From a virus (taxonomy: Duplodnaviria > Caudoviricetes): DNA of 64,000 bases. Below, in pieces: positions 15,121 to 60,827 of this stretch. The notes below the pieces were generated by a model. That model searched no databases and was not told the DNA's origin. It worked only from the letters and a program-made list of their open reading frames with translations. The stretch's first letter is position 1. Each line of letters starts with the position of its first letter. Where the stretch lies: the IMG/VR virus record IMGVR_UViG_3300011977_000007, positions 1 through 64,000 of that record. One strand, written 5' to 3'. Both the position numbers and the translations under genes were made by a program.

Positions 15121-16326
15121 CTAATAAGATTTTACATATATCAATTGCTGATCTGGTCTTGATGCACCAACAACATTAAGATTTGTTTGTATATCTGGAC
15201 TCATACGTTCTTCGATATAAACAACTCTATGCCATTGGCTACCCTGTGCAACATGATCTGTTATTGCGTATGCATATTCAAACATGTTTCCAACTTCATA
15301 TCTATTATTTTTTATATTTTTTCTGCCTTGATAATCGGAAACCATGTACTTGTAATTACATCTTGTTTGCTCAAACATCATATTCGGTACCAATTGCGGT
15401 ACGAAATTCATTGAGAATAGTTTACCATCAAATGATGATACATCTGGATTACTAGCAACTGTGCCTATTAACCCATTTACAAGATTAAGTTCTCCACCAT
15501 TACTAAATGGTATCCCTTCAATCCAATTATTTTTACGGCATACTACTTTTTCGCCATATTCAGGTAATTTTGAATTATGACCTATAATATTCCTTATTTT
15601 ATAATTTAATTCATCTCTAGTTCTATTTTTACAACAGATTACTTGATCTGCCCATAATAGCATATTATCTGATAAATCACTATAATTAATAACTAATGAA
15701 TTACCGTAATATCCATTAAGTAATGGTAATCCTGCTCTTACTCTATTAGTAAGATATATAATATCATCTCTTCCTGTTTGTCTCATAACTTCTGTTAAAT
15801 GATATATTTTACCTGAAACTAGAAATCCCGGTAAATCACCTACTGGAGGTAACTGCCCTTGGTCTCCACATACCAATATTTTTAACCCAAATTTCTCTAA
15901 TTGCGGTCTCATTGATAATGGCACTGTAAATCCCTCATCTATAACTATAAGTTTAATTGATGGATTTAGTGCTGTTACTGGTATAAATTTTGGTGCTTTA
16001 ATTGGTCTATTGAATAATGTATCCATAATTACATTACCATTTTCATCTAATGCATTTACTTCTTTTACGTTATATAACCATGAATGAATTGTTTTAGCGC
16101 TTAATAAGCCTTTCAATCTCATTACCAGAGATGCAGAACCAATAAAACTCATAGGGGCAATTTCATTCATTATATCTAAACCAAGTCTTTTTATAATTTC
16201 CATAAGTACTACTGATTTACCACTTCCGGGTGGCCCATCATATTGAAATACTTGTTCATGGCTATTATAATACCACTTTACTGCTTCTTCAACTACAAAT
16301 CTTTGCCCTTCATTTAGTTGAAACAT
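15121..16326 (-). CDS. SF1B helicase, Dda/RecD-like
   Basis: GPPGSGKS, VIDE, GDQGQLPPV, LTEVMRQ, AYAITxHxAQGSQW. Confidence 0.9.
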   Translation of the reverse strand: MFQLNEGQRFVVEEAVKWYYNSHEQVFQYDGPPGSGKSVVLMEIIKRLGLDIMNEIAPMSFIGSASLVMRLKGLLSAKTIHSWLYNVKEVNALDENGNVIMDTLFNRPIKAPKFIPVTALNPSIKLIVIDEGFTVPLSMRPQLEKFGLKILVCGDQGQLPPVGDLPGFLVSGKIYHLTEVMRQTGRDDIIYLTNRVRAGLPLLNGYYGNSLVINYSDLSDNMLLWADQVICCKNRTRDELNYKIRNIIGHNSKLPEYGEKVVCRKNNWIEGIPFSNGGELNLVNGLIGTVASNPDVSSFDGKLFSMNFVPQLVPNMMFEQTRCNYKYMVSDYQGRKNIKNNRYEVGNMFEYAYAITDHVAQGSQWHRVVYIEERMSPDIQTNLNVVGASRPDQQLIYVKSY

Positions 16327-17754: not shown

Positions 17755-17779
17755 GCAGGTTAGCGTATTGCTAACCTGC
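17755..17779. terminator. Hairpin between convergent genes
   Basis: GCAGGTTAGC-gtatt-GCTAACCTGC. Confidence 0.6.
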
Positions 17780-40182: not shown

Positions 40183-40258
40183 AATAAGCACCATGGGATA
40201 ATGCCCATGGTGCTACCTTTAACATTTTATTAAAATAATGAATAAAGGGGGAAAAGAA

Positions 40259-42781: not shown

Positions 42782-42796
42782 TAGGAGGGATTGGTT

Positions 42797-43078
42797 ATGA
42801 AATTAAATTATATAAAATCACAATCTTCTGTTAAGCCCGATTTAGTTGATACTACTTCATCTAAAGTTGTTGTGTATTTAAGACAGAATATTGTAGAAAA
42901 TATAAAGACAGATGAAATGTCTGGAAAAGAAACTGTTTTTTATGAGTATGAAGAAGCTAAACTTACTAAAGAAGAGTATGAAGAATATAAAAAGCAATTA
43001 GATATTATTAATATTGAAAAACAAAGAGCTGATATTGATTTTCTTGCTCTTCTGACAGGAGCTGATTTAGGCTATTAA
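42797..43078 (+). CDS. XkdW-like small tail-fibre accessory protein
   Basis: C-terminal RADIDFLALLTGADL. Confidence 0.55.
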   Translation: MKLNYIKSQSSVKPDLVDTTSSKVVVYLRQNIVENIKTDEMSGKETVFYEYEEAKLTKEEYEEYKKQLDIINIEKQRADIDFLALLTGADLGY

Positions 43079-43153
43079 TTAATACGCCGTGGATACTATC
43101 CATGGCGCTATCTTTAACATTTTATTAAAATAATAAATAAAGGAGGAAATATA

Positions 43154-44026
43154 ATGGCTGTTAACGCTAAATTAACCCAAAATATTAAGGGCAAAAAGCA
43201 AATTATACATCCTGAAACTAGTGCTGAGCAAGTTTTATATGGTAATTCTACTGTTAAAAAAGCATTAGATGATTTAAAAAATGGATCATCTGGTAGCGGT
43301 AGTGGCGGATCTGAAAGGTTCGATAGAACAGATAAAACTTCAACTACAGTAGGCGGATTACCAGCTGGATCTTCTGTTAAAGATAAAACAACTAAAGAAG
43401 TTTTGGAATCTATTTTATTCCCATATCAAAAACCAGGAGTTTCTTTTTCTATTAATCCTTCTACTTCAGTATATGAAGTAGGAAACTCTATTCCGAGTAT
43501 TACATTCTCTATTAATGCTACAAAGCATAGCAATAATATTGAGAATATTAAAGTATATGTAGGAGGCACTTTGGTTACTACAATTACTGATAAAGTAGCA
43601 AATGGTGGTACATTCTCATATACTTATAATACTGCGATTAATACTAATACTACTTTTAAAGTAGAAGTATCTGATGATACTAATACTGTATCTGCTACTA
43701 AGAGTGTTACATTTACTAATAAATCTTATTTTGGATTTATTGCCGATGGTGTAACCGTAACAGATGCTGTAGTTAAAGCATTACAAAATAATAATCTTAA
43801 GACCACTAAAGCTTTAAGCTATAATGGTATTACTGCAACTAATTCTAAAATTGTATATGCTTATCCTAAATCATTTGGAGCTTTATCATCTATTCTTGAT
43901 GGTAGTGGTTTCGAATATATTTCTAGTTATACTAGAACAGAAGTAACAATTGATGGGGTAGATTACTATGTATATACTCTTACCGATCCTGTTACTGTTG
44001 ATGGTTTCTTACAGACTTATGCATAA
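43154..44026 (+). CDS. Virion protein, Ig-like; paralog of the 44049 C-terminal region
   Basis: IHPETSAEQV N-terminus; VGGLPAGSSVKDK...FPYQKP...YAYPKSFG. Confidence 0.65.
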   Translation: MAVNAKLTQNIKGKKQIIHPETSAEQVLYGNSTVKKALDDLKNGSSGSGSGGSERFDRTDKTSTTVGGLPAGSSVKDKTTKEVLESILFPYQKPGVSFSINPSTSVYEVGNSIPSITFSINATKHSNNIENIKVYVGGTLVTTITDKVANGGTFSYTYNTAINTNTTFKVEVSDDTNTVSATKSVTFTNKSYFGFIADGVTVTDAVVKALQNNNLKTTKALSYNGITATNSKIVYAYPKSFGALSSILDGSGFEYISSYTRTEVTIDGVDYYVYTLTDPVTVDGFLQTYA

Positions 44027-44048
44027 TGTGAAAAGAGAGGTGTTTTAA

Positions 44049-45212
44049 ATGGCAATTCAAATTGGTGCTAATTTTTCATTTAAAGGAAAGAAGTTTCTTG
44101 ATGACAGACAATCATTTGATACTTTAGCTGAGATGAAGTCCTTTATCGAATCCGGGTTACCAGAAGGATTCCTTGCTTATAATAAAGAAACAGATAAATA
44201 CTATAAGTTTAATTCAACAAATGAAGATGATGCTACTCTTGGAAAGTGGAAAGAGTATGCTACAGGTGGCGGTCATACTCATGATAATAAAGATTTGCTC
44301 GATACATTAATTAATACTGGAGCTGGAGATAAGTTTTTAGCAGATGATGGAAAATATAAATCTGTCTTTGTTATTAGCAATGAAGCTCCTACTGATACCG
44401 GAGTATTCTGGATTGATGATACTGATGCTACTAAGTTATTACTTAAGATTCATAAGAGTGATGAAGATGGATGGGTAACTATTAGTGCCGCTGGTGGTGA
44501 TAAGATTACTAGAGCTGATACTACAACTGTTAAAGTTGGTGGTTTAGATGCTGGATCTTCCGTTAAAGATAAGTCCGTTGCAGATATTCTGGAATCTATC
44601 TTATTCCCATATCAGAAACCAGAAGTTTCTATTTCTATCAATCCTGCAGCTACAATTTATGAGATTGGTGCTACAGTTTCTAGCATTACATTTTCAATTA
44701 CTGCAACGAAGAAGAGTAAAGATATTACATCTATCAAGATTTATGATGGAACCCAGTTAATTAATACCATTACTGATGATGTAGCTAATGGTGGTACATT
44801 CTCATATACTTACTCATGTAATATTACTACTAATACTTCATTAAAGGTTGAAGTAACTGATGGAACTAGTACAGCGTCTGCAGTTGAGGGTATTGTATTT
44901 ACTAACAGATCTTACTATGGTTTCGTAGCTAATAATGCGACTGTAGATGATACTGCTGTTAAGGCATTACAGAAGAATAGTCTTAAGACTACTAAGGATC
45001 TTACTTATTCTGGTATTACGTGCTCATTCTCTAAACTCGTATATGCTTACCCTAAGTCATTCGGTACATTAAAGTCTATCTTAGATAATAATGGATTCGA
45101 TTATATTAGCTCTTATGAATGCAAGGAAGTAGCTATTGATGGGGTAGATTACTATGTATATGTAATGAAGGATGCTACAACTGTAGATAACTTTAAGCAG
45201 ATTTATGCTTAA
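44049..45212 (+). CDS. Virion protein, PLD family copy 3 fused to a 43154-like domain
   Basis: Shared N- and C-terminal domains visible by alignment. Confidence 0.65.
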   Translation: MAIQIGANFSFKGKKFLDDRQSFDTLAEMKSFIESGLPEGFLAYNKETDKYYKFNSTNEDDATLGKWKEYATGGGHTHDNKDLLDTLINTGAGDKFLADDGKYKSVFVISNEAPTDTGVFWIDDTDATKLLLKIHKSDEDGWVTISAAGGDKITRADTTTVKVGGLDAGSSVKDKSVADILESILFPYQKPEVSISINPAATIYEIGATVSSITFSITATKKSKDITSIKIYDGTQLINTITDDVANGGTFSYTYSCNITTNTSLKVEVTDGTSTASAVEGIVFTNRSYYGFVANNATVDDTAVKALQKNSLKTTKDLTYSGITCSFSKLVYAYPKSFGTLKSILDNNGFDYISSYECKEVAIDGVDYYVYVMKDATTVDNFKQIYA

Positions 45213-45232
45213 TTAAAGGAGGTTGTTCTATT

Positions 45233-47221
45233 ATGCCAATTCAGATAGGGGACAACTTTCAATATAGAGGAAAGAAACCTTTGGATAATAGAAATAGTTT
45301 TGATACGACTTCTGAAATGAAGTCGTATCTTGACTCCTTTATTGATGAAGGTCATATCTCATATTGTAAAGAAACAAATAAGCATTATAAATATAATTCG
45401 TCTAATGAAGATGATCCTGTTTTAGGAAAATGGAGAGAATTTAATTCTGGTTCTTCTTCTGGTTCTGGAGATTCTACTCCTGCTAACATTATTGAAGTCA
45501 CCGATTTAATTAATACACCAAAAATTGGTGCTCAGCAAACTGTAACTTCAACAGATTTGAAAGCTAATATTTCTGATTTGAAAGTAAATCAGTTGGTATA
45601 TGATACCAGTGGATATATTGCTAAGATTGATTCTATCGATTCCACTCAAGATCAAATAGTATTAAAGGTTATTCATTACAATCCAAATTCTTCAGCTATT
45701 ACAGTAATCCCAGAACCAAATGATGATTCTAAATTATATTTTAGATCCAGAGAAGATGGGCAAAGTGCTGGTAAATGGATTGAATTTACTTCGGTAGATG
45801 GTACTAATATAAACGTAAAATTAAACGAAAAAGATAGCTCAAACACTACAGATGCAGATTATATACCTAAGCACGGAGAATTAGTTTACGATACTAATAA
45901 AAATATAATTGTACTTGGCGATGGTAAAACTAAATTGATTAATTTAAGAGCATTCTATTCAGTGGCTGTAACTGCACAAGATATTTTAAAATCTTTAGGA
46001 TTTACACCTGAGAATATTTTAAATAAAGGGCAACCTAATGGGTATGCTGGATTAGACGCTAATGGAATAGTTCCAGAGGCAAACCTTCCAGCAAGTGTTA
46101 CAAGTTCTTATAGTAAAGCTGATATTGATAAGAAGGATTCAGATGTATTAAATAGTGCTACTACTTTAGTAAATACCGAGGCTTCTACAGCTAGAAGTAA
46201 TGAAAATAAGATAAAGACAGATTTATCTAATCATACAAGTAATTTAGTTATTCATGTTACTCAAGATGATAAAGATAATTGGAATAAAAAAGTAGATCCT
46301 TCTGCATTAACTAATTATGATACTCATATTGCCGACGCTACAATTCATGTTACTCAGGCAGATAAAGATAAATGGAATGGCATGAATAAGAGTTACTTTG
46401 TGCAAAATATTTCTGATTTACCAACTACTGATAATGATATTGGTAATATTGGATATGTGCAAACATCAGCTGCTGGTATTACCCCTATAGCATGTGCTAC
46501 TTATATTTGGGACGGTACTCAATGGTTACAGTTAGATCAAACTCAAGTATCATTACAGTTTACTTGGAGTAATATAAGTGGAAGACCTAATGCTACGGCA
46601 TTAAAGATTGATGAAGCCGTAAATAGCTCTCATAAGCATAATAATAAAGGCGTATTAGATAAGATTTCTCAATCCGCTAATGGTAATTTTGTATTTAATG
46701 ATGTTGAGATTGGTATTAAGGTTATCTTTGAAGATACTGAAAAAGATTTACCTGATGCTGGTGCTGAAGATACTTTATATGTAGTATATAGAGATTCTCG
46801 TGTAAGAAATTACCCATCTATATCTGTATATAAAGACAAAGCATATCAAGTACTTGGTAGAGGTGCTCAAGATATACCTCAACAAGTAGGAGATATGAAT
46901 ATATTACAGCATGAATATTTTTCTGCTGCTAAGGGTGCACAGGTAATAATTAATGTAAATTCAAATCAATATTTTGCATTTTTACCTGTAGAAATATTAA
47001 AGAAAACTGAAGGTTTAAAAGCTCAAGATAAAGTAATACTTACAACTAATGATAGTGATAAATTTGTATATGATAAAGATCTTATTGCTGTATTAAATAG
47101 CGGGATAATTATTTCTCTTCAATCTATCCCATTAAAACTCGATAGTTCATCTGAGGGAACACATATGCTGTATGAAGATGTAGACTTATCGAAATATAAA
47201 GATATAAATTATATTGGATAG
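45233..47221 (+). CDS. Tail fibre/adaptor protein, PLD family copy 4
   Basis: GELVYD...LGDGKT, KGQPNGYAGLD, IHVTQxDKDxWN repeats. Confidence 0.7.
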   Translation: MPIQIGDNFQYRGKKPLDNRNSFDTTSEMKSYLDSFIDEGHISYCKETNKHYKYNSSNEDDPVLGKWREFNSGSSSGSGDSTPANIIEVTDLINTPKIGAQQTVTSTDLKANISDLKVNQLVYDTSGYIAKIDSIDSTQDQIVLKVIHYNPNSSAITVIPEPNDDSKLYFRSREDGQSAGKWIEFTSVDGTNINVKLNEKDSSNTTDADYIPKHGELVYDTNKNIIVLGDGKTKLINLRAFYSVAVTAQDILKSLGFTPENILNKGQPNGYAGLDANGIVPEANLPASVTSSYSKADIDKKDSDVLNSATTLVNTEASTARSNENKIKTDLSNHTSNLVIHVTQDDKDNWNKKVDPSALTNYDTHIADATIHVTQADKDKWNGMNKSYFVQNISDLPTTDNDIGNIGYVQTSAAGITPIACATYIWDGTQWLQLDQTQVSLQFTWSNISGRPNATALKIDEAVNSSHKHNNKGVLDKISQSANGNFVFNDVEIGIKVIFEDTEKDLPDAGAEDTLYVVYRDSRVRNYPSISVYKDKAYQVLGRGAQDIPQQVGDMNILQHEYFSAAKGAQVIINVNSNQYFAFLPVEILKKTEGLKAQDKVILTTNDSDKFVYDKDLIAVLNSGIIISLQSIPLKLDSSSEGTHMLYEDVDLSKYKDINYIG

Positions 47222-47235
47222 GCGGTGAAATTAAT

Positions 47236-48921
47236 ATGGGAACAATTTTACAATTTAAATCATGCGCATATGGCGGTGAATATACTGGTTATAATACTAC
47301 CCCTACTAATATATATTATGGATCTATGTATACGCCTGATAAAATAGGCGCATATATTAAAGAATGCTATAAAAATGATCCTAATATGGTAAACGTAGAG
47401 GGTATTGGATATGGATGGCAAAAATATACCGTTCCATATACATCTAAACTTAAATTTAGTGTTAGAGGAGCTGCTGGAGGAACCACATCAAGTGGCGCTG
47501 CTTCAATAGATCCAGTTACTGGTAAGGTAACTGGTAGCCTTAATAGACCTGGTAGAGGAGCAAAAATTGAAGGTGCGTGTTTACTTAATAAGGGTTCAAT
47601 TATATATATCTTAGTTGGTTGTAGAGGTTGGTCATCTAATGGCACTGCTTGGGGTAGTGGTGGTGGAGGAGCATCTGTAGTATTATTAGATAATCCTTCT
47701 GGTGCTTATACATTTACGCCCGTTAATAGAAAAGTTGATGTATTATTTGTTGCTGGCGGTGGTGCTGGTGCATATGTATGCTCGAGAATAGATTCGAGTA
47801 GATATGGAAACGATGCCGATATAAAGAATGGAACCAGTACAGGGGCTGGAAGTTCTAATAAAGCAAGTGGTGGTGCTGGATTAACTGCTGGAACTGGAGG
47901 GGATGAAGGTAATGCATATGCTATATTATCTGGAAATCCAAGTACTACCTCTAGTCCATATTATGGAGGATGGGGCGGTGGAGGAGTTTCATGGAATGGT
48001 GGTGGAGGAGGCGGTGGCTATAGCGGCGGAAATGCTACCGACTCTGGATTAAGTAATGGTGGAACATCATATATTAACCCCACTCTATGTACTGAAATAT
48101 TTAGAGGATATGCTACACTTGCACAAGATTCAAATAGAAATCTTGAGAATCCTTGGACTGCATATGGATTTGTAGAAATTGAGTTAGGTAGAAGCCCGGA
48201 GAAATATATTCTTGCGAAAGACTCTGATGGATATAAATATTTTAATGGTATTACGTTGCTCGATAATACCACTAATGATTCCGGTAATGATACTTGGGAA
48301 TTATTACCAGACCAGTCTTCTGTTCCAACACAAGATATTTATGAAACCTATGGTAAATATATGATTACTAGCGCTAATGGATTACAGAACAAAGTAAGAT
48401 TTCTTGTAAGTTCTAATGAGGAAGATGATACTATTGATATTTCTGGTAAAGTAAATAAAACTATAGTAGAAACTAAAGATAATAATACATCTGGTATTGA
48501 TACTATTAAGTCTATTACTTTTACCGGAAATACTGCTGGAGCTACAATTAAATTTGCCGTTTCTAAAGATAGCGGCGCTTCATGGCAAACTTATAGTAAT
48601 GGTGTTTGGAAAGATATAGATGTTACTGATAAAGATAAGTTCTTAAATGATGGATGTTATCTTGATCAAATAACTACTATTCCTGTAAATGATTGGAAGG
48701 ATTATCTTTCTAAGACATTAAGGTTTAAGTTCATTATTGATCAGAATGATACTACAGGAAATTTAATTAACGAAATTAAATTTAACGTAGACTTACTTGG
48801 ATCATGGATGCATTTTAAAGAATCGCAAGCTCAGTATGAGTATATTTCTGATACTGAATTAAAGATCACTTTCTTAGAAGCTGGAGATTATAAAGTAAAT
48901 TATTTGGATAAAATATCATAA
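47236..48921 (+). CDS. Glycine-rich (ALK/LTK- or gp38-like polyglycine) putative adhesin
   Basis: GAAGG, GGGGAS, VAGGGAG, GGWGGGG, GGGGGGYSGG, GGTSYI. Confidence 0.7.
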   Translation: MGTILQFKSCAYGGEYTGYNTTPTNIYYGSMYTPDKIGAYIKECYKNDPNMVNVEGIGYGWQKYTVPYTSKLKFSVRGAAGGTTSSGAASIDPVTGKVTGSLNRPGRGAKIEGACLLNKGSIIYILVGCRGWSSNGTAWGSGGGGASVVLLDNPSGAYTFTPVNRKVDVLFVAGGGAGAYVCSRIDSSRYGNDADIKNGTSTGAGSSNKASGGAGLTAGTGGDEGNAYAILSGNPSTTSSPYYGGWGGGGVSWNGGGGGGGYSGGNATDSGLSNGGTSYINPTLCTEIFRGYATLAQDSNRNLENPWTAYGFVEIELGRSPEKYILAKDSDGYKYFNGITLLDNTTNDSGNDTWELLPDQSSVPTQDIYETYGKYMITSANGLQNKVRFLVSSNEEDDTIDISGKVNKTIVETKDNNTSGIDTIKSITFTGNTAGATIKFAVSKDSGASWQTYSNGVWKDIDVTDKDKFLNDGCYLDQITTIPVNDWKDYLSKTLRFKFIIDQNDTTGNLINEIKFNVDLLGSWMHFKESQAQYEYISDTELKITFLEAGDYKVNYLDKIS

Positions 48922-48940
48922 AATTAAAAACCATTAAATT

Positions 48941-48971
48941 TGCACTATGGGAATCCCATAGTGCATTTTTG
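48941..48971 (+). terminator. Intrinsic terminator
   Basis: TGCACTATGGGA-a-TCCCATAGTGCA then T run. Confidence 0.7.
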
Positions 48972-49177
48972 ATATTAGCAACATTTCATTAATAGACTGA
49001 TTAGTCTGCTATCACTAAGAAGCATAACTACAAAGAAAAATATATTGAAATTTTTTATTTTAATTATTTATACATTATTTTATTTTTCTCGTAGTATAAA
49101 TATTGCATTCTGCGTATGATTAAATTCATACACTATATTTTTTGCTTCTTAAATATATAGAAAGGAAAATGAATATT

Positions 49178-49723
49178 ATGCAAGTAATAAAAACACCCAC
49201 TGGATTGATTGCTGTTGATGAATTAGCACAATCTATGACTCAAACAGAGTATAATAATTTACCTGCAGATAAACAGAAGGTTGGTACTTATTATATTATA
49301 AGTGGCGATGGTAAACATATAGCTCTTATTATAAAAGATGGTGTTCCACTAGATTCACTTCCTGCTAATAATGCTGCATTTACACCACCTAGTGGTATGA
49401 GTTCAACTACAGTTCAACAAGCTATAACAGAACTTTATAATAATATGAAAAATACACATAAGTCTATTACTGCAGTGGCTCCATCTACTAATTGGACTGG
49501 CAGCGCTGCTCCTTATACTAATAATATTGCTGTTGCTGGAGTAACAGCTAATAATATAGTTGAAGTTGGGTTAAGTAATAATGCGAATGACGATCAAGTT
49601 AAAGCATGTATGAAAGCAAGTATTGCTAAAATAGAACAACAAAACGGAAGATTAATATTATATGCTTATGGTACTAAACCTACGGTGGATATACCATTAT
49701 CATGCGTTATAGTAAATAATTAA
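49178..49723 (+). CDS. Short tail-fibre adaptor; C-terminal domain shared with 56539
   Basis: APYTNNIAV...VEVGL..NANDDQVKACMKASIAKI...YAYGTKPTVDIPLS; late motif at 48980. Confidence 0.65.
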   Translation: MQVIKTPTGLIAVDELAQSMTQTEYNNLPADKQKVGTYYIISGDGKHIALIIKDGVPLDSLPANNAAFTPPSGMSSTTVQQAITELYNNMKNTHKSITAVAPSTNWTGSAAPYTNNIAVAGVTANNIVEVGLSNNANDDQVKACMKASIAKIEQQNGRLILYAYGTKPTVDIPLSCVIVNN

Positions 49724-49739
49724 TAAGGAGGAAAATATT

Positions 49740-50907
49740 ATGCCAATTATTAATAGACTTCCAATCGGGGGGGGGGGCATCCTCTGAAGTAGGCATTAGT
49801 GACGGTAAAGGAATTGTAAATTTAAATATTTTTACACAAATGGATGAACCTACAAAGAAAGATGGAATTTGGATTAAAACTAATCATAAATATCAGAGAA
49901 TCATAATTAATAAACCTTATGTAGCATCAAATACTGAAACCGAAATATATTATGTACTAAATCCCGTACCATTTGACATTAGTTTTGCTCAGAAATATTC
50001 ATGTCTGCTACATGGAAATATGTATGTTGTAGGTTATATATATAATTCTAATAATGATTCGTGGACTTTTACTAATGAGCCATATGGTGTGTGGTATCAT
50101 AATGATATATATTATGCAACTTATTTGTCTAATGATGATTGGTACATATGTAGATATAATAATGGCAATCCTGTAAAAATATGCAAATTCTTGGAGAGTA
50201 GTGATAGTTTCTATGCAGTTTATAATGATGAAATATATATTAGTAATTTTGAGAATAGCACATATTATTCAATGTTTGTAAAATTTAATGGTAGTGCATA
50301 TACAGAACTTAATCCTAGCGATAGACCATCTGGTATTAGGCAAATAATATCTTATGGCGGATATTTAAATATATTTACTTTAAATGAGCATTATATATAT
50401 AATGCGGCTAATAATACTATAACGTATAAAACCTATCTCCCACGTACATATACAAATGGCTGTTGCGCAAAAGTTACGGTTCACAATAACGAGTTACATT
50501 ATTGTGCATATGATTCACATTATAAATTTAATGATTCTTCCAGTTCGTGGGTACAAGTATCTAAATGCGATGGCTTACCTAGCGATATAGATTATTTGTA
50601 TAGTGCAATTTCGTATAATGGAATTATTTATTTATTTACAGGTAAATATGATAAAAAGTTTATGTGCTTAAAATCTCCATCAGTAGTATATGATCCTAAT
50701 ACTTTAATTTTGCACAAGAAGAATACATATACTGGTACATATCTAACAGCAATTGCTGATACTTCAGCGATTATCGATGATGGAAATAATAATAATCGCT
50801 TTGTTTCCAGTTTCGATGATTGCTATTATTTTGCAGATTCTGCATTTGATTGGACTGCACCGATGTATTATGGTAATGGATCGCAATGGATAAAATTTAA
50901 AAATTAA
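49740..50907 (+). CDS. Beta-propeller-like putative RBP, frameshifted at G11 tract (388 aa if G10)
   Basis: AGGAGG SD, MPIINRLPI leader, G11 at 49767-49777, main ORF in +1 frame. Confidence 0.75.
49767..49777 (+). repeat. Poly-G tract G11
   Basis: CCAATC-G11-CATC. Confidence 0.95.
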
Positions 50908-50952
50908 TATAGAGGATTTATTATCCTCTATAAATTAAAGGAGGGTAATATC

Positions 50953-52153
50953 ATGCCAACAATTAATAGACTCCCAATCGGGGGGGGGGGCATCATCTAG
51001 TGGTGCTGCCGGATTAAATATCTTTACTCAGATGAATGAACCTGAGAAGAAAGATGGTATTTGGATACAAACCAATAATCGATATGAAAAAATAATTACT
51101 GATGCTAGGATTATGGTTAATACAGATAATGGTGTTATAAGTAACAAAAGATATTTGCACTATTCTGGCACTGGTGCCCCCTCTTATTATAATTACAGTA
51201 TTGATTGTGAATATTATAATGGATCGGTATATGGATTGGTTGACTGCCAAAATGGTAGCGAAACCATATGGGTATTGCTTGTACGAATAGATAATAATAT
51301 AATTACCACTATAAATGAAAATAATGTGAAAATTAAATATATAAATAAATACATGGATAAAATATATCTTACATCCGGAACTGATAAATCTGATGGATAC
51401 TCCGTCTCTTCATTATATGTATTAAATAGTCAAATGAATCAAGAAAATTTTTTATCAATACCTATTAGTGATATATGTGGTGTTATTGAGTATAATAATA
51501 CATTACTATTTATTGGTGCTTACAATGAGTATTGCCAATTTGATGGTAATTCATTCACAACTAAGTATACGACTACTGATAATATACATGGTAATTGCGT
51601 TGTATATAACGGATATATATACACATCATCGAATGTTGGTTTATATAGATGGGATACTAATAATATTACTTTAGTATTATCGTCATTTAGAATGAATGGT
51701 CAAATGTGTGTATATAATAATAGTATTTATTATACATATGGTCCTGATTTATATAAATATAATGCAATTGATAATTCTTGTACATTAATATCCGGTAATG
51801 TACTTGATCGAGAAGGTTCAATATTATTATGCACCGATGGATATAAATTATATATGCAGACATTTAATGATAGTTGTGGTCCAGATGATAGTCTTATAAA
51901 AAATATAACTGCTAGAGTTGCCGATTATTCTTTAGCTAAACAAAATTTTGATAATAATACCGTAATATTACAGCGTGGAGAAACCGGAAATGGGAAATAT
52001 CAAACTGCATTTGCTGATTTAACTAAAAGTGTTTCTGGCGTTAATCGTTTTATTTCTGGATTCGATGACGCTTGGTTTTATAGTAGTGGAGGATTTGAAA
52101 ATTGTCCTATGTATTATGGTAATGGATTTCAATGGATAAGATTTAAAAATTAA
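50953..52153 (+). CDS. Beta-propeller-like putative RBP, frameshifted at G11 tract (399 aa if G10)
   Basis: MPTINRLPI leader, G11 at 50980-50990; Kelch-like CVVYNGYIY repeats. Confidence 0.75.
50980..50990 (+). repeat. Poly-G tract G11
   Basis: CCAATC-G11-CATC. Confidence 0.95.
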
Positions 52154-52202
52154 AGAAGGCATTTTGCCTTCTTTTTTATTATTAATTAAAGGAGGCGATA
52201 AA

Positions 52203-53513
52203 ATGCCTGTATTAAATAGAATAAATAGGATGCTTAGTTTTCCTATGAATAGTAGTAGTGGGGTAAGCGGGAAGTATTTTCTCGGTAGTGGACATATTTA
52301 TAATTTTAATGACAATGGTACAATTACTACTATTAATGCCCCATCCAATATATCTTTTTCATCAGCAACAAAAAATGGTAGTTATATTTGCGCTTATCGT
52401 TATAGTGACAGCAACAGTTACTACATTTATCAATATAATGGTGATTCTATAACACAGACCCAAGATATTAGTGCTTATTTAAATAACTATAATTATAGTT
52501 CTAAAATAAATGATGGCAATACATATACAATTAATAGTATTAGTAGCCCTACATTTGCTAATACTGATCAATATATTGTATTTGCAGTATCATTAAAATA
52601 TGCTTCTACTCCTTACTTACATAAAGTATATATATGTGTATTGGAATTAAATAATGGCAAATATGAAATGAGTAAAGTTATAGATTCGAATATGGGTGAT
52701 CAAAATACTGTATCTACAGGCGTATCGCTACGCGGAGTATCCGACGATTTATCATATTTTTTCGTTAGTATCGATACCCCATCCGGTAATACATACGATT
52801 CTTCTTTATATATGATATATGCTAATTCGCCTAATGCATATACAGCATGGAAAATGGATACTGAAAGAGGAACACATATTACAGTTGGATATCCTGGCGG
52901 TTCTTCTAACTGGGATGAAATTCCTAGCTTTTACCTTGCGGATAATAAATATTTTATTACCGATGTAACATCAAGTGATTTTATATACGTATATAAAATA
53001 AATGATCATAGCTCTATTACTAGAACATTTACAAGTGATTATTGCCCGCTACATACGTCAATTTCCATTAAAAATATTGAGTACATTAATAATGATTATA
53101 TAGCGCATTATACGTATAGTTATAGTAGTGACAGTTACGATCAATATTATAATTGTATATATAGGTTACAGGATAGTATTTATAATTATCGTTATTCGTC
53201 GGAACGAGAAAATGTTAATATTGGATTTTATGATTATTATGTTATACTTATAGATGATTATAGTAGAAAGACATATTATAAGTCTTCAGACGGTAAATCG
53301 TTATACGTTAAAAATAATAAATATTATCTTAATGGTAGCGAAAATAATGTAGTGACCACTGGAGAATCGGAAGTTTCAACTATGATATATCATACTAATA
53401 GTGATAACTATAATGATAGAATTTCCATAGGAAGCTATTATGGATATGATGATAATAACGGAAATTATAAATTCTTTAATATGGCAGCAAGCGTATACGG
53501 CGGCCCTTATTAA
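52203..53513 (+). CDS. Tyr/Ser/Asn-rich putative RBP with related leader (MPVLNRI) but no poly-G; in frame
   Basis: AGGAGG SD before ATG 52203; uninterrupted ORF. Confidence 0.7.
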   Translation: MPVLNRINRMLSFPMNSSSGVSGKYFLGSGHIYNFNDNGTITTINAPSNISFSSATKNGSYICAYRYSDSNSYYIYQYNGDSITQTQDISAYLNNYNYSSKINDGNTYTINSISSPTFANTDQYIVFAVSLKYASTPYLHKVYICVLELNNGKYEMSKVIDSNMGDQNTVSTGVSLRGVSDDLSYFFVSIDTPSGNTYDSSLYMIYANSPNAYTAWKMDTERGTHITVGYPGGSSNWDEIPSFYLADNKYFITDVTSSDFIYVYKINDHSSITRTFTSDYCPLHTSISIKNIEYINNDYIAHYTYSYSSDSYDQYYNCIYRLQDSIYNYRYSSERENVNIGFYDYYVILIDDYSRKTYYKSSDGKSLYVKNNKYYLNGSENNVVTTGESEVSTMIYHTNSDNYNDRISIGSYYGYDDNNGNYKFFNMAASVYGGPY

Positions 53514-53546
53514 ACATATTTAATTTAATTTTTAGGAGGATTAATA

Positions 53547-54510
53547 ATGTCAATTTTAAATAAACTTCCAATTGGGGGGGGGGGCATCTGATAATACTTC
53601 CTCTGGAGAATTATTTACTAAAGATGCAATAATATCAAATGCATACTATTATTTTGATCAAATGGTACATTGTGCAACTTCAGATACGATTGTATTAGGT
53701 TATCATTTTTATTCCGATAATAAATATTGGTTTAGAAGATATACATATAAAAATAAAGTATTTACTATGTTACCTTCATTAGACCAGGTATGGAGCTCTG
53801 TAGCACGATATATCTTAGTATCAACAGATACTAGGGTATATCTTAATATAGCATCTGGATATATATATGAATACGATAATAATGATTTAGAAAATTGGAT
53901 TAATAGATATAATGATAATAATATATTTAATAGTGGGAATGGATGTGCATGTATGTTTAATAATAATATGTATGTGGTTGTTAATGATTATAATTACGTT
54001 AATGGGAATTACGAATATAATACTAATATATATTCATATGATTTTACAACCTATACGCTGTTATATTCATCTAGCTTTATTTATAATTATGCAGTACATC
54101 AGTGTATATATTATAACGGAGATATATATTTAAGATTTGGAAATCATTCTGGGGTAAAAGTATTTAATATATTAAATCATAATAATATTACAGATTTAGC
54201 TACTCCAATGAAGTATATTGGATCGATATGCGTATATAATCAATGCATATACTTTATTAGCGGAGCACAGGTAGAAGCGCAGAGGCTTTTTTATAAATAT
54301 GATGGAACTCAGTTTACATTAATATGTGATTTAACAAATCATATGAAATGTAATTATAGTTCCGATAGTATTATAATGGAAGTGATAAATAATAAATTAT
54401 ATCTTTTAGGAGATTGTATAGATAAAAGTGATAACCAAAATAGCGTATATATCTATAACTCTACGGATGGCGATTCATTTACTAAAGTATCTTGGTTATG
54501 TAGTAAGTAA
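53547..54510 (+). CDS. Beta-propeller-like putative RBP, frameshifted at G11 tract (320 aa if G10)
   Basis: MSILNKLPI leader, G11 at 53574-53584. Confidence 0.75.
53574..53584 (+). repeat. Poly-G tract G11
   Basis: CCAATT-G11-CATC. Confidence 0.95.
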
Positions 54511-54587
54511 TATTTTATAATTTTTAAAACAATTTAATAAATAAATATTTTTATTTACAATCAAATGGTGAAAGGAGACTATTCAAT

Positions 54588-54878
54588 ATGGCTAAGATTG
54601 ATAGTGGAAAAACTTTAGACAACAAGAAAATTGAGTATGAGATTCTTGACGATGGATATGATATCTATTTAGGTGGAAATCTTTGGATTACTCAGCACGC
54701 TCAGTATGGAAAACCGATTGATCCTGAAGGAACTTACGAAGAGAATTGTAAGAAACAGATTGAACAGATCACAACGGTTCCGGAACCAACTGTAACTCCA
54801 CAGGATAAGTTACGTGCAGATGTAGATTATCTTGCACTTATCACCGGTGTTGACTTAAATGAAAATGTATTAGCTTAA
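54588..54878 (+). CDS. XkdW-like tail-fibre accessory protein
   Basis: LRADVDYLALITGVDL; late motif at 54528. Confidence 0.6.
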   Translation: MAKIDSGKTLDNKKIEYEILDDGYDIYLGGNLWITQHAQYGKPIDPEGTYEENCKKQIEQITTVPEPTVTPQDKLRADVDYLALITGVDLNENVLA

Positions 54879-54892
54879 GGAGGAAATATATT

Positions 54893-55111
54893 ATGGCATT
54901 CACAGCAAGAGATTTATCAAAGAAATATTACCCAAGACTTTGGCCAATTTGTCGTTTGGTTGCTTTGGTAAAAGTAGGAAAATTATCTGAAGCTGATTAT
55001 AAGGAGATTACTGGATTTACATATCCGGCTACATCAGCACCAACAGAGGAGTCAAAGGATACTAAGAATGATGCTTCTGAGACTACAGAAGATTCTAATA
55101 AGCAGAAATAA
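54893..55111 (+). CDS. XkdX-family protein
   Basis: KKYYPRLW...LVKVGKLSEADYKEITG. Confidence 0.75.
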   Translation: MAFTARDLSKKYYPRLWPICRLVALVKVGKLSEADYKEITGFTYPATSAPTEESKDTKNDASETTEDSNKQK

Positions 55112-55125
55112 TAATTAAGAATAAA

Positions 55126-55157
55126 TATACTGGTGCAATATAATTTGCACCAGTATA
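55126..55157 (+). terminator. Intrinsic terminator
   Basis: TATACTGGTGCAA-tataat-TTGCACCAGTATA then T-rich run. Confidence 0.65.
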
Positions 55158-55205
55158 CTATTTATTTTTTATATAAAATAGGATGATTTTTAAGGAGGAA
55201 AGACT

Positions 55206-56397
55206 ATGCCAGTAATAAATCGACTTCCAATCGGGGGGGGGGGGGGCATCTGAATTAGGAATTTCCAACGGTAAAGGAACTGTTGGATTGAACGTATTCA
55301 CTCAGATGGATGAACCTCAAAAGAAAGACGGAATATGGATAAAAACAAATCATACCTATCAAAATGTGATGGTAAATCAACAGTTTGCTAATTATCAAGA
55401 TGGTGTTTGGAGTGCAATTTGTCCATTGAATAATATAGGAAGGACTAAATTAGTTACAAATCAAGGTGCATTATATTTATTTAGCGATAATTATAAGTTA
55501 TATCGCCTAAATGGATCAGCATTAGAATATATTTGTGATTATAATAGTAGAACTAATGTAATGGCATCTTATAATAATTCATTATATATTATTACTGCTT
55601 CTGTAAGTACCGGATATGTATTTAAATATAATGGTATTAACTGGGAAAGAGTATCTGAATTTTATGGTACAACATATTTTGATAATTGTGTTACATTATA
55701 TAACGATCAATTATGCCTTTTTTATGGTAATAGTAATCAGACAATAAGCAACGATATATATCTATTTAATGGATCTACATTTACGCAATTATGTGATGCG
55801 ACTTTTTACGGTAGTGATAATGATAAAATACTAATAAAGAGCATTATTACTTATAATGGTAAACTATATATGTTTGGTAGTGTATCAAGATTTCCAGCAG
55901 ATGGCTTATTTTACTTTGTTTTAAATGCAGGTAATAATTGGACAAAATCAACAGTGCCAGTGACTGCAAATTCATTGTGCGTATGTACTTGCGTTTATAA
56001 TAATGAATTATATTTGTTCTATGAGGACAGAGACACTACTTATAATGATATATACTATTGTAAATATAATGGTGCATCATGGACGCTTATAGGGAAAGTT
56101 GGATATTGTGGTCAAGTTTCTTTAAATCAATATATGTACGGTGCTAGATCTTCATTATATAGATATACTTTACCGCAAAAAGTATATAATCCAAATACTG
56201 TTATTATAAATAAGGGTGATTCTCAAAATGGTGTTTATTTAACCAATATGTTTGATACGTCTTACATGGTTGGTAATAATAGCAATAGATTTGTATCTGG
56301 ATTCGATGATTGTTTTTATTTTGCAGATTCTGCATTTGATTGGGGGGCTCCAATGTATTACGGCAATGGTTCTCAATGGATTAAGTTCAAGAATTAA
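55206..56397 (+). CDS. Beta-propeller-like putative RBP, frameshifted at G14 tract (396 aa if G13)
   Basis: MPVINRLPI leader, G14 at 55233-55246. Confidence 0.75.
55233..55246 (+). repeat. Poly-G tract G14
   Basis: CCAATC-G14-CATC. Confidence 0.95.
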
Positions 56398-56538: not shown

Positions 56539-58707
56539 TTGTTTAGAAAAATTACTTATACTGATAAAGAAGATATACTTGGCCTTGTTTCTATTGATAA
56601 TAAAAATAAAGTAACAGCTCAAGATATGAATGATATCAAGAATGCTATTAATGATAATACTACAGAATTAGATAAAATAATGGTGCATTTAGCAGGAGAT
56701 ACCATGACTGGTGCTTTAAATTTTAAAGCTAATACTTGGAATAAATATGGTTCTAATGTTGCTGTTGGAGCTATTAATACTGCCGGTACCCTAGCAGTAA
56801 AGGGATTGGATGGAAAAACTACTATTAGATTAGTTCCTAATGGAGCTACTGATAATAATGGTGTTACATGGGCAGCTAATTCTGCTACAGATTCTACTAT
56901 TAGTGGCACTCTTAATGGTAGTTTTAAAGGCCCATTAGAAGGAAATGCTGCTACAACCACGAAGCTTCAAACTGCAAGAACCATTAATGATACTTCATTC
57001 AATGGTACTGCTAATATCACTACTGCTAAATGGGGAACTGCTAGAGATATTACATTAGGATTAACAAAGAAATCTGTTAATGGTTCTACTAATATGGCAT
57101 GGACTTTAGCAGAAATGGGCGCTTTACCAGCTGCCGGTGGTAGCATGACTGGCGATATTAAATTTTCAAATGTTCAAACTGGAATGCGCGGTATTACGGG
57201 AACAGTTGGAGATAATGATAACTGGAGAGTAGTTGGTGTATCTACTGCATCGGATGCTGGATATTTAGAAATTGCTACGGCTGATGGGGGAGACGAGCCA
57301 ATATATGTAAGACAATATTCTTTTAAAGATAGTAATTCATTTGGAACTGTTGCTAGAACTGCTACAATATTAGATGCTTCTGGTAATACTACTCTGCCCG
57401 GATTATTAACTGTTAATGGTATTCATTCATCTAAAGCTTGTACTTTTGATGATAATTTAACTGTTAAAAAGAATATTACAGGTAATGGTACCCTGTCAAT
57501 AGACGGAGTTACAACTCTTAAGAATAATGCAAATATTAACGGTACTTTATCTGTTGATGGAGCTACAACACTTAAAAATACATTAAGTGTTACTGGAGCG
57601 CTTACTGTACATGGTGGTATAACCGGATCTTTAACCGGTAACGCTTCTACTGCAACTAAGTTAGCTACTGCTAGAACAATTTCTTTAACAGGATCTGTAA
57701 CTGGTAGTGGTACATTTGATGGTAGTGGTAATTTATCAATAGCCACAACAACGAATCATACACATGCATATTTACCGACTGCCGGTGGTAGCATGACTGG
57801 AAATATTAATTTTAATGGTAGAGGTAATAATTATATAGGTGCTGGTCCAAGAGATGGTGCTGGCGGTGTAGGTGAAGAATTAAATAACCTTGTAATTTCA
57901 GCATGGTATGGTGTATCTTTTACAACATTATGCGATGGAAAATATAAAAATAAAAACGCTGTAAGTATTAATACTAGAACTGGCCATGTGTATGCTAATA
58001 CTTATCATGGTGCTTTAAGTGGAAATGCTTCTACAGCTACAAAAGCAACGCAAGATTCAGCAGGACAACAAATTAATACAACTTATATTAAAGGATTATC
58101 TGTATCTGGTAGGACTATTACTTATACTAAGGGTAATGGCACTACAGGAACAATTACAACTCAAGATACCACATACCCTTTTAAAGCTATGACTATTGAT
58201 GGTAGTTATACTACAAAATATCGTACACAAACAAAAGGTAATACTGCTAGTGGCGATTATATAACCACCATAAGAAACGATACAGCTAATGTAAGTAACT
58301 CCCCCCAATATGGTTCCGGTTTAGCTTGGGGTAGGGGTGATACACATGGATATATGTATATGAGTTATAGCTCACCTGAAGCTTATGTTGGTGGTGGCAA
58401 TGCTGATAAACTTAACTGGGTTAAAAAAATAGGATTTGCTCCGATAACCACTAATGTTATTGCATATGCTGGTTGGTGGGGAGGTGGTGCTGCTCCATAC
58501 ACATGCACTATTAATATAGCAAATGTTACAGCAAGTAATGTTGTTGAAGTAGGTTTAGCTTCTAATGCAAATGATGATCAGGTTAAAGCATGCATGAAAG
58601 CAAGTATTGCTAAAATAACCCAAGCAAATGGTTCTATTACATTATATGCTTATGGGACAAAACCAACGGTAGATATACCACTTTCTATAGTAATAATGGA
58701 AAATTAA
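56539..58707 (+). CDS. Long tail fibre protein
   Basis: GNAxTATKLxTARTI repeats, LPxAGGSMTG, LEIATADGGDEPIYVRQY; late motif at 56428. Confidence 0.85.
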   Translation: MFRKITYTDKEDILGLVSIDNKNKVTAQDMNDIKNAINDNTTELDKIMVHLAGDTMTGALNFKANTWNKYGSNVAVGAINTAGTLAVKGLDGKTTIRLVPNGATDNNGVTWAANSATDSTISGTLNGSFKGPLEGNAATTTKLQTARTINDTSFNGTANITTAKWGTARDITLGLTKKSVNGSTNMAWTLAEMGALPAAGGSMTGDIKFSNVQTGMRGITGTVGDNDNWRVVGVSTASDAGYLEIATADGGDEPIYVRQYSFKDSNSFGTVARTATILDASGNTTLPGLLTVNGIHSSKACTFDDNLTVKKNITGNGTLSIDGVTTLKNNANINGTLSVDGATTLKNTLSVTGALTVHGGITGSLTGNASTATKLATARTISLTGSVTGSGTFDGSGNLSIATTTNHTHAYLPTAGGSMTGNINFNGRGNNYIGAGPRDGAGGVGEELNNLVISAWYGVSFTTLCDGKYKNKNAVSINTRTGHVYANTYHGALSGNASTATKATQDSAGQQINTTYIKGLSVSGRTITYTKGNGTTGTITTQDTTYPFKAMTIDGSYTTKYRTQTKGNTASGDYITTIRNDTANVSNSPQYGSGLAWGRGDTHGYMYMSYSSPEAYVGGGNADKLNWVKKIGFAPITTNVIAYAGWWGGGAAPYTCTINIANVTASNVVEVGLASNANDDQVKACMKASIAKITQANGSITLYAYGTKPTVDIPLSIVIMEN

Positions 58708-58765: not shown

Positions 58766-58795
58766 AAAACAGTAGGGCTAAGCCCCTACTGTTTT
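58766..58795. terminator. Bidirectional terminator
   Basis: AAAACAGTAGGG-ctaagc-CCCTACTGTTTT. Confidence 0.7.
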
Positions 58796-59244
58796 ACTTC
58801 TTCTATTATATCGGGATTCATTATTAATATACTATCGCAATCCCATCCGCATAATGAATAGTACAAATCTCGGCATTCGCTAATATTTACTTCAATCGCA
58901 TCATACTCTTTAGATAATTTTTCAAAATCCAAGAATATGAATATGCTAATACCCCTAAGTAATGGTAATTTGTTTTGTGCCATTGGTAATCTAGATAGTA
59001 TATCAGTATTATTGATATATAATACTTTGGCACCATCTTTTAATTTAAATCTAAATGCATCATTCTCATCAATATCTCTAAATTCTTCATCAATGCACCA
59101 ATCTTTCCACCCAAATTTAGCATCTATTCTAGATGCCCAGAACCCCCCTCTAGGTTTTGTAAATAGTTGTATGTTTTCTATAGGCCTACACATTTCCTTA
59201 CAAAATTTCTTATGCCCGTAATGAACGTATATTGGTTTTTCCAT
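58786..59244 (-). CDS. Hypothetical early-type protein (KPRGGFWAS...GWDCDS)
   Basis: GGAGG SD; early-type motif at 59274. Confidence 0.7.
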   Translation of the reverse strand: MEKPIYVHYGHKKFCKEMCRPIENIQLFTKPRGGFWASRIDAKFGWKDWCIDEEFRDIDENDAFRFKLKDGAKVLYINNTDILSRLPMAQNKLPLLRGISIFIFLDFEKLSKEYDAIEVNISECRDLYYSLCGWDCDSILIMNPDIIEEVKQ

Positions 59245-59342
59245 ATTAAATTCCTCCATTTCTTTTATTTATATTATAATATATAATTGAAATTTATTAC
59301 TATTTTTACATGATGATAAAATAATATAAAGAGGAGTGAAAT

Positions 59343-59939: not shown

Positions 59940-60827
59940 ATGGCAACAGCAAAACAAATTATGGATAAAGCTATTAGTTATGTAGGTACTAAAGAGAAAC
60001 CTGCTAATAGTAATAATGTTATTTTTAACACGCATTTTTATGGTAGATCTGTAAGTGGTATCCAGTATAAATGGTGTGCTGCATTCATATGGGATATTTT
60101 TAGAATGTGCGGGGCTTCTAAATTATTTTATGATGGAAAAAAGAGTGCTTATTGCCCTTCTATTAAAAATTGGGCTGTTAAAAATAAGCTCACGGTAGAT
60201 AAATCTAAAGCTAGATATGGGGATATTGTAATTTTTGATTGGGATCATAATAAAATTCCTGATCATATAGGATTTATTGAGGACTATAAAAATGGAATCT
60301 ATTATACTATAGAGGGTAATACTTCTGTTGGCAATGATAGTAATGGTGGTTGTGTAATGCGTAGAACTAGACTTGCTAATTCTATTTGCTGCGTTATAAG
60401 ACCAAAGTATTCTAATACTAAATCTAAAGAAGTATCTGCAGATAAAGATACCGGTAATTCTAAATCATATATAGGTGATCAGAATTATTATCTTAATAAT
60501 TCTAGAGTTGGTACATGGCAGGCAGCTATGAATAAAGGTTTTGATACTAAGACTCTTACTGTAGATAATAAATTTGGTGCTAATTCACAGGCATTTGCAT
60601 CTACTCATATTCTTTGGTCTGGTCAAGCTCATAACTGTATTACTGCAATCAATTGGCTTAGAAAGACTCTGCATGACGTATATGGATATAAAGAGCTTCC
60701 AGTAACAGGATGCTGGGATGCTACATTAACTAAATATGTAAAGAAATTTCAGAAATCTGTTGGTGAAAAACAGGATGGAAAAGTTGGTCTTATTACAACA
60801 TATCATCTTCTTAAGGGTTCTAAGTAA
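59940..60827 (+). CDS. Endolysin: CHAP domain plus peptidoglycan-binding-like repeats
   Basis: WCAAF, DHIGF, TIEGNT; VKKFQKS...DGKVG; late motif at 59901. Confidence 0.88.
   Translation: MATAKQIMDKAISYVGTKEKPANSNNVIFNTHFYGRSVSGIQYKWCAAFIWDIFRMCGASKLFYDGKKSAYCPSIKNWAVKNKLTVDKSKARYGDIVIFDWDHNKIPDHIGFIEDYKNGIYYTIEGNTSVGNDSNGGCVMRRTRLANSICCVIRPKYSNTKSKEVSADKDTGNSKSYIGDQNYYLNNSRVGTWQAAMNKGFDTKTLTVDNKFGANSQAFASTHILWSGQAHNCITAINWLRKTLHDVYGYKELPVTGCWDATLTKYVKKFQKSVGEKQDGKVGLITTYHLLKGSK

Follow-up and report, generated by a model that had tools for sequence, protein, structure and literature searches.

Why should an AT-rich virus carry four neighbouring genes that each contain a run of 11 to 14 G residues directly behind the ninth codon, and why should this run, in all four, leave the remainder of the gene out of frame? 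The question is raised by a 64,000-nucleotide stretch of DNA from a member of the Caudoviricetes, here called the window, which constitutes the first 64 kb of the IMG/VR virus record IMGVR_UViG_3300011977_000007 (110,263 bp, GC content 29.3%, CheckV completeness 35%; source run SRR948125). Homologous sequence was found in gut metagenomes of pig, cattle and other animals, from 12 studies. We consider it likely that these genes are a set of paralogues for tail-associated Kelch propellers, probably accessory receptor-binding proteins (RBPs), and that they are switched by slipped-strand phase variation. As they stand in the window, with ON and OFF for a body in and out of frame with its leader, Gn for a run of n Gs and aa for amino acids, the genes are the following.

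49740..50907, plus strand: gated gene 1; leader MPIINRLPI at 49740-49766, G11 at 49767-49777, body from 49777; OFF, G10 would give 388 aa
50953..52153, plus strand: gated gene 2; leader MPTINRLPI, G11 at 50980-50990, body from 50990; OFF, G10 would give 399 aa
53547..54510, plus strand: gated gene 3; leader MSILNKLPI, G11 at 53574-53584, body from 53584; OFF, G10 would give 320 aa
55206..56397, plus strand: gated gene 4; leader MPVINRLPI, G14 at 55233-55246, body from 55246; OFF, G13 would give 396 aa

All four are built to the same plan. An ATG preceded by AAGGAGG or TAGGAGG, a strong Shine-Dalgarno (SD) sequence, opens a leader of nine codons with the consensus M(P/S)x(I/L)N(R/K)LPI; the G run begins 27 nt after the ATG and is directly followed by CATC, and the leader frame stops one or two codons past the glycine run. 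Each tract is one G too long. Removal of one G, or addition of two, fuses the leader to an open reading frame (ORF) of 388, 399, 320 or 396 aa, and only tract lengths of 3n+1 yield these products. A scan of runs and frames thus bears out what the initial annotation had described: the four starts with their leaders and tracts, the fusion upon loss of one G, and the lack of any other G run of this length in the window. The last point extends to the whole record, in which all other runs of G or C are shorter than 7.

Composition and codon usage do not account for these tracts. Dinucleotide shuffles predict 0.03 G9 matches, against 15 overlapping matches observed at the four loci, and the window contains no homopolymer of 8 or more of any base other than G. 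GGG is the rarest glycine codon (7% of the glycine codons in the long ORFs of the record), and none of the 15 other tri-glycine motifs in the record is encoded as GGGGGGGGG. The leaders differ from each other at synonymous sites while the G run is uninterrupted, though the bodies of the paralogues are only 29-42% identical. For 308-387 codons these bodies are free of stops, and this in an AT-rich genome. The tract therefore has the features by which contingency loci are recognized, namely a homopolymer of at least 7 nt that lies inside the reading frame, sets the frame and that is over-represented with respect to both composition and codon usage.

The leader may have a further role. In predicted mRNA folds of genes 1 and 3 (49725-49780 and 53532-53590), the GGAGG of the ribosome-binding site (RBS) pairs with the CUUCC of leader codons 7-8, and in those of genes 2 and 4 (50938-50995 and 55191-55250) a CUCCC or CUUCC pairs with the G run instead. 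The pyrimidine stretch of the leader may be an anti-SD element, as judged from folds that are without statistical significance.

Does the length of the tracts vary? It does: genomes without any other difference diverge in it, and alleles of either state, ON and OFF, occur. Lengths were read from assembled contigs, and within the source run the window was compared with three other assemblies (L020, L021 and L022, all SRR948125). Window and L020 show 0 mismatches over 14,969 nt; their sole gap, of 4 nt, is tract 4, which is G14 and OFF in the window and G10, in frame (395 aa), in both L020 and L021. Likewise, the contigs L037 and L038 have 0 mismatches over 16,201 nt and a sole gap of 3 nt, which is again a tract (G11 versus G8). 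With tract length as the only difference between otherwise identical sequences of 15-16 kb, the poly-G slipped-strand switch that had been proposed for this locus is supported. Tract 1 is G11 in all four same-run assemblies, and a 2025 contig from cattle gut, obtained in another study, aligns across it without gap. Three of the four same-run assemblies have G11 at tract 2, where the Logan assembly has G12, and tract 3 is G11 in three, the Logan contig ending exactly there. Breaks of the Logan contigs from the source run thus fall on tracts 3 and 4, and five short contigs stop inside a tract or no more than 10 nt away from one. That the same-run assemblies differ at tracts 2 and 4 and that contigs break at 3 and 4 is consistent with heterogeneity within the population, although it is no proof of it.

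The comparison with related genomes, which the initial annotation had recommended, gives the same picture on a wider scale. Relatives carry two to seven gated genes with tracts from G7 to G14, and in-frame and out-of-frame alleles of orthologous tracts coexist. A syntenic 262-kb relative (L018, which is the L037 contig) has seven gated genes, of which two are ON, three are one G too long and two are one G short; in a further sample with the same gene order, two gated genes are in the opposite state, as judged by the length of the called genes. For an unbiased sampling, the conserved, ungated 96-aa gene that lies within the array was used as an anchor. The gated gene downstream of the neighbouring XkdX gene is then found with G7, 8, 9, 10, 11 or 14 in different samples, its leader being invariant. 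The orthologue of gene 1 in another sample combines G9 with loss of the following C and is likewise one G too long, and a gene-2-like homologue with identical leader DNA (P0026) is G10 and ON in two other runs.

The sister genome G001 (265,692 bp, 98% complete, syntenic with the window) encodes at least six leader-gated genes and, in addition, two poly-G tracts in other genes. One of these, a G11, lies within a small ORF that immediately precedes a gated gene (L008:15324-15334, or G001:265323-265333). The other, a G9 on the minus strand (L007:10785-10793), frameshifts the homologue of window ORF 58786-59259 (minus strand), of which the window copy is intact (KPRGGFWAS) and without tract. The G001 contig itself ends inside a leader-gated G run (265684-265692) and begins in the body of the same gene (G001:1-1184); therefore, this near-complete and probably circularly permuted assembly broke at a tract. 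Some relatives have interrupted tracts: G8-T-GGG (L043:1404), G8-T-GGGG (L045:1009) and GGGGG-A-GGGGGGG (L053:588-600). Those of L045 and L053 are in frame and that of L043 is one G short; presumably, they are partly locked alleles.

How would such a tract operate? Each gene would be translated from its own RBS, and the glycine linker that follows the nine-residue leader is written as an uninterrupted G run, to which slipped-strand mispairing during replication of the phage DNA would add, or from which it would remove, G residues. Lengths of 3n+1 (7, 10, 13) would join leader and body, and all other lengths would end translation after 14-16 codons. Since only 3n+1 joins the two, each gene would switch heritably, reversibly and independently. 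The progeny of a burst would then differ in their set of accessory propellers, which would amount to bet-hedging on variants of the host surface. It is probable that the polymorphism observed arises in this manner, by replication slippage within populations. The up to 16 states calculated in the initial annotation hold for four independently gated genes; for the clade as a whole this number is only a lower bound because L018 has seven.

If the switch is to be meaningful, the fused product has to exist. Among 82 homologues (P0001-P0082), about 12 start with the full leader, MPxINxLPIGGG(G)AS, so that they have been called from in-frame alleles, and about 30 start at an internal methionine. Most public gene calls for the family begin at such an internal methionine or in the wrong frame upstream, and it is the tract that causes this systematic misreading by automated annotation. 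In distant homologues (L011, L014 and L019), leader, Gly/Ser linker and body lie in one ORF with mixed glycine codons and with no G run of 7 or more (in L019, none of 6 or more). Judged from these sequences, the fused leader-body product is a real protein. Because the distant homologues encode the linker with mixed codons, the homopolymer is a derived feature, and one that is maintained in the clade. The family member of L019 (10001-11332) has its leader and glycine linker intact (MPLISRLPSGGGGGKPG) and lies, directly after a Peptidase_S74 tail fibre, on a 55-kb contig of 39.7% GC that looks temperate (RecT, SSB, ANT/Bro).

What kind of protein is gated? Genes 1, 2 and 4 and their relatives are alike in having conserved terminal segments, LNIFTQxxEPxKKDGIW at the N-terminus and some 70 aa at the C-terminus (NRFVSGFDD...PMYYGNGSQWIKFKN), with a hypervariable centre between them. 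Gene 3 is a shorter paralogue without the conserved N- and C-terminal segments, the body of which matches the propeller of the family (hhalign probability 97.6%, E 4.5e-12). A profile of 58 family members matches Kelch proteins of the PDB with an E of 3.6e-38, and Pfam Kelch families match 16 of the 58 members (best E 3.6e-47); gene 4 of the window matches Pfam Kelch at 8e-8, which is below the curated cut-off. An AlphaFold2 (AF2) model was built on the naturally in-frame allele of gene 4 (L020). It is all-beta, with a mean predicted local distance difference test score (pLDDT) of 81.5 and a predicted template modelling score (pTM) of 0.70, and its leader and glycine linker (residues 1-23) are disordered. 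A Foldseek search with this model retrieves the Kelch domains of Keap1 and KLHL and designed six-bladed ones, with target template modelling (TM) scores of 0.58-0.65 and a root-mean-square deviation of about 4.4 A over about 270 columns. The model also superposes on sugar-binding propeller lectins and on virion structural proteins of other jumbo phages. Profile, Pfam matches and model thus agree with the Kelch- or beta-propeller-like ORFs of the initial annotation, and the structure prediction that it had called for, performed on a fused product, returns a Kelch-type propeller. Together they support the identification of the gated products as predicted Kelch-repeat beta-propeller proteins.

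A single-protein search of IMG/VR gives no relatives, and a profile search finds only three IMG/VR loci and four metagenome loci, all of which, except G001, are more distant and lack poly-G. DNA pattern scans of IMG/VR retrieve G001 only. No match is found in 50,697 GenBank phage records by megablast of the region or by tblastn of gene 4.

The genes around the array point to a role in the virion. They are given here, together with the hairpins found in a terminator scan.

40238..49723, plus strand: upstream tail module (phrog_5302 at E 3e-89; phrog_7389; PF12810), which includes the next four entries
40238-42781, plus strand: tail protein
45233-47221, plus strand: fibre-like protein
47236-48921, plus strand: glycine-rich-domain protein
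49142-49723, plus strand: 193-aa ORF
50908..50932, strand not assigned: terminator-like hairpin after gene 1
52152..52174, plus strand: intrinsic-terminator-like hairpin with T run, after gene 2
52203..53513, plus strand: ungated 436-aa ORF inside the array; starts with a leader-like MPVLNR, has no poly-G, conserved in G001 (L007:2481-3812)
54588..54878, plus strand: conserved 96-aa gene without Pfam or PHROG match
54893..55111, plus strand: small 72-aa protein of the XkdX family (PF09693 at E 5.4e-6; score 26.8 bits, curated cut-off 23.5)
55126..55157, plus strand: terminator-like hairpin before gene 4
56539..58707, plus strand: 722-aa tail-fibre protein immediately 3' of the array (16 PHROG families match, about half of them annotated as tail fibre, best E 2e-11)
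59940..60827, plus strand: endolysin, marking the end of the structural module (phrog_21357, E 8e-39)

Upstream of the array lie a tail protein, two fibre-like proteins and the glycine-rich-domain protein, and the location between tail-fibre genes that had been noted earlier is confirmed by the database matches on both flanks. The endolysin, the orthologue of which carries a CHAP domain in relatives, follows behind. Of the XkdW- and XkdX-like neighbours named at the outset, the XkdX-family protein stands; the XkdW-like label is unconfirmed because Pfam gives nothing for the 96-aa neighbour at E up to 0.1. This 96-aa gene is present on about 80 and about 26 contig blocks from pig and other gut assemblies. 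Between 48800 and 58900 there are 16 terminator-like sites where 2.7 are expected, and hairpins separate most genes of the array. The ungated ORF at 52203-53513 was considered as a "default" paralogue and rejected: only its first six residues are leader-like, and its body is without detectable homology to the gated family (hhalign probability 6%).

Both position and architecture suggest a tail-associated RBP. The array is situated between tail and tail-fibre genes and the endolysin, and in L019 a Peptidase_S74 fibre adjoins the family member. Conserved N- and C-terminal segments flank a hypervariable propeller, the fold of which resembles lectins and virion proteins of jumbo phages. The gated proteins therefore probably sit on the virion. 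From gene position, architecture and fold, they would furthermore be expected to bind host receptors and to affect host range.

Which phage carries the array? G001 encodes ORFs resembling the beta subunits of RNA polymerase, one of which is 35% identical, over 89% of its length, to the corresponding protein of the Bacillus phages AR9, PBS1 and Goe21 (E 5e-90) and about 31% identical to those of Staphylococcus jumbo phages. The record of the window itself, with its completeness of 35%, yielded no gene for this subunit. Through the syntenic G001, sequence comparison lends support to the earlier designation of the phage as an AR9-like jumbo phage, at the distance given by the 35% identity of this G001 ORF to AR9, PBS1 and Goe21. 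The nearest cultured relatives of the upstream tail protein are phages of Butyrivibrio, Bacillus, Faecalibacterium and Clostridioides, and a host among the Bacillota is likely for this AR9-related phage. tRNA genes are absent from the 110-kb record, and hence there is no phage tRNA-Gly. The left half of the window (582-29880) is a replication module, with the following genes.

2332-4689, minus strand: gyrase/topoisomerase IV subunit A
15121-16326, minus strand: AAA_30/PIF1-like helicase
17771-19498, minus strand: DnaB-like helicase

This module is consistent with a jumbo phage that supplies its own replisome, by which the rate of slippage would be determined.

Several observations weigh against phase-variable RBPs as the full explanation. 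PHROGs contains no family that matches the gated proteins, their virion and receptor role is argued from context, and the tblastn search of GenBank phages yields no cultured-phage homologue for them. Part of the disagreement between assemblers may be stutter of the library polymerase chain reaction (PCR). Finally, the frame states are skewed in a way that is unlike simple, unbiased switching. This was established on 35 de-duplicated tracts, from which ON alleles found by way of leader-starting proteins had been excluded in order to avoid ascertainment bias: 21 carry exactly one G too many, 8 read in frame and 6 lack one G (chi-square p 0.003; p 0.036 if the window is left out). The commonest length is G11, found in 16 of the 35 tracts. 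Genes with ON lengths of 8/11 or 9/12 are also found one above (L007:3870, G10; L007:8019, G10; L023:7931, G9). The skew could possibly result from a length-dependent mutation bias that toggles tracts between G10 and G11, from selection in favour of OFF alleles, which return to ON when a single G is lost, or from low-level +1 recoding by slippage of RNA polymerase or ribosome.

The excess of tracts that are one G too long therefore leaves room for a further layer of control or bias, recoding or skewed mutation for example, and programmed recoding is the alternative that survives best. It holds that the one-G-too-long form is the functional allele, in which slippage of RNA polymerase or a +1 slip of the ribosome restores the frame in a fraction of the events. 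The outcome would be a constitutive, low and set level of protein alongside a leader peptide of 14-16 aa, and such recoding may act on top of DNA switching to give three levels. Besides the 21 of 35 tracts, which include all four of the window, and the genes with shifted ON lengths, it can claim that the identical genomes L037 and L038 differ by three Gs, with the frame state unchanged. GGG is a rare codon, the stop lies one or two codons past the run, and the clade encodes its own AR9-type RNA polymerase. However, alleles that are in frame (G7, G10) are common and others are short of one G, a variation that a fixed recoding site would not tolerate. Where a programmed frameshift or slippage site is recognized by conserved length and offset and a stimulatory element, the tracts range from 7 to 14 and occupy all three frame states. 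Folding of the RNA around them gives no structure that is conserved or significant, and 3' of the tract none that is unusually stable (z-scores -0.06, -1.9, 0.13 and -0.57). Moreover, the skew fits a G10/G11 toggle driven by length-dependent mutation bias equally well, because G11 is simply the modal length. As conserved mRNA structure is lacking and in-frame alleles are common, recoding is rated as a minority possibility, and an unlikely one. A more elaborate form can be imagined as a three-level rheostat, in which the strongly preferred alleles with one G too many would permit a little read-through, by slippage of the AR9-type RNA polymerase or a +1 ribosomal slip on GGG, and in which G(3n+1) would give full and G(3n) no expression. 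It has an equally modest chance of being correct. If it were true, every virion population would carry trace amounts of all accessory propellers, and programmed recoding and contingency-locus switching would be united in one element.

It is far less probable that the variation is an artefact of sequencing or assembly, with true tracts that are in frame and stable and lengths that reflect homopolymer errors. In Illumina libraries, long G runs are indeed prone to error; two of the four tracts also differ between assemblies of one sample, and tracts are places at which contigs break. Yet tracts 1 and 3 are G11 in every same-run assembly that spans them (four and three, respectively) and tract 2 in three of four, tract 1 is also recovered without gap in the cattle-gut contig of the other study, and G9, G10 and G11 are resolved side by side within the same contigs. 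Consensus lengths lie 3-4 nt apart between samples, which stutter does not produce. Besides, a conserved, uninterrupted G run after codon 9 of diverged paralogues in a genome of 29% GC needs explaining at any length. That the genes are decaying paralogues, redundant duplicates frameshifted at a mutation-prone site and heading to loss, is very unlikely, for although all four are out of frame in the window assembly and some relatives (L043, L045, L053) have interrupted tracts, the bodies are open throughout, relatives have kept the leader, the RBS and the terminal segments, other assemblies and runs contain these genes in frame, and frameshifts occur at the tract only and never elsewhere in the bodies.

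Reading the array as phase-variable genes has consequences beyond this one locus. The principle described for the Fletchervirus phages of Campylobacter, which is discussed below, recurs in a clade of AR9-like jumbo phages, unrelated to them and widely distributed in gut metagenomes of pigs and cattle, and a standardised cassette of RBS, nine-codon leader and G run heads each member of a bank of four to seven paralogues. If the products are RBPs, one phage genotype would field 16 to 128 virion types, which bears on the prediction of host range from metagenomes and also concerns the design of phage cocktails. Gene calling is affected because most database entries for the family start at an internal methionine, and assembly because contigs break at the tracts. 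The excess of one-G-too-long alleles poses a testable question, that of mutation bias versus recoding.

How does the array relate to systems that are already known? Programmed slippage is familiar from the +1 frameshift of prfB, the transcriptional slippage of dnaX and of insertion sequences (IS), and the -1 frameshift on G/GT in phage tail chaperones. As in those cases, a slippery homopolymer near a stop joins two frames, and one offset (one G too long) predominates. Here, in contrast, the tracts vary in length, alleles that are in frame are common and RNA folding gives no stimulatory structure; membership of this class is unsupported, although such slippage may contribute. Another group of systems diversifies RBPs at the population level by a dedicated genetic mechanism, as would the array: the invertible tail-fibre segments of Mu (Gin) and P1 (Cin) and the diversity-generating retroelement of Bordetella phage BPP-1. 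In the present case no invertase, inverted repeats or reverse transcriptase is involved, and whole genes would be toggled instead of tips being swapped or mutated.

To our knowledge, poly-G switching of phage RBP genes has been demonstrated only in Campylobacter Fletchervirus phages, and a search of the literature on poly-G arrays or homopolymer switching in jumbo phages returned nothing relevant. The Fletchervirus precedent invoked in the initial annotation is indeed published: according to the account in bioRxiv 10.1101/2025.10.21.683753, the RBP genes of these phages contain hypermutable polyG tracts (Sorensen et al. 2021, Cell Rep 35:109214, cited through this preprint and also among the references of PMC10877375). 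In what this account relates, the likeness to the array is close. G runs of 7-11 lie inside host-recognition genes, their length shifts the frame, subpopulations differ in receptor use, and the switch is stochastic, heritable and reversible and resides on the phage, not on the host. The differences lie in the carrier and in the construction. Fletchervirus is a 130-kb Campylobacter myovirus, whereas the array belongs to an AR9-related jumbo phage of the pig and cattle gut with probable Bacillota hosts; furthermore, the array gates a Kelch propeller family, its tract always stands right after a conserved nine-codon leader, it forms a bank of four to seven paralogues and it is known from sequence alone.

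Bacterial contingency loci make use of the same device. Campylobacter jejuni possesses phase-variable surface-structure genes with poly-G tracts (Parkhill 2000 and Bayliss 2012, as cited in PMC10877375). In that summary, they share with the array the intragenic G tracts (about 8-11 nt there), the slipped-strand ON/OFF switching and the several independent loci that give combinatorial phenotypes. The loci described here differ in that they reside in a virus, gate paralogues of one family and are presumably replicated by the phage's own replisome. In T2, T4 and other phages, homopolymer contingency loci provide bet-hedging by reversible frameshifts (Gomez, Barrick and Waters 2025, bioRxiv 10.1101/2025.10.21.683753), and the survey of coliphage genomes in the same work finds repeats of at least 6 nt across all gene classes, with under-representation in tail-fibre genes. 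In contrast, the runs of the array are long (G11-G14), are found exclusively in tail-module paralogues and are clearly selected. The principle of the switch is thus already published; new are the phage lineage and the protein family, and the array is further marked by the standardised cassette of leader and tract, the bank of paralogues and the non-random distribution of frame states.

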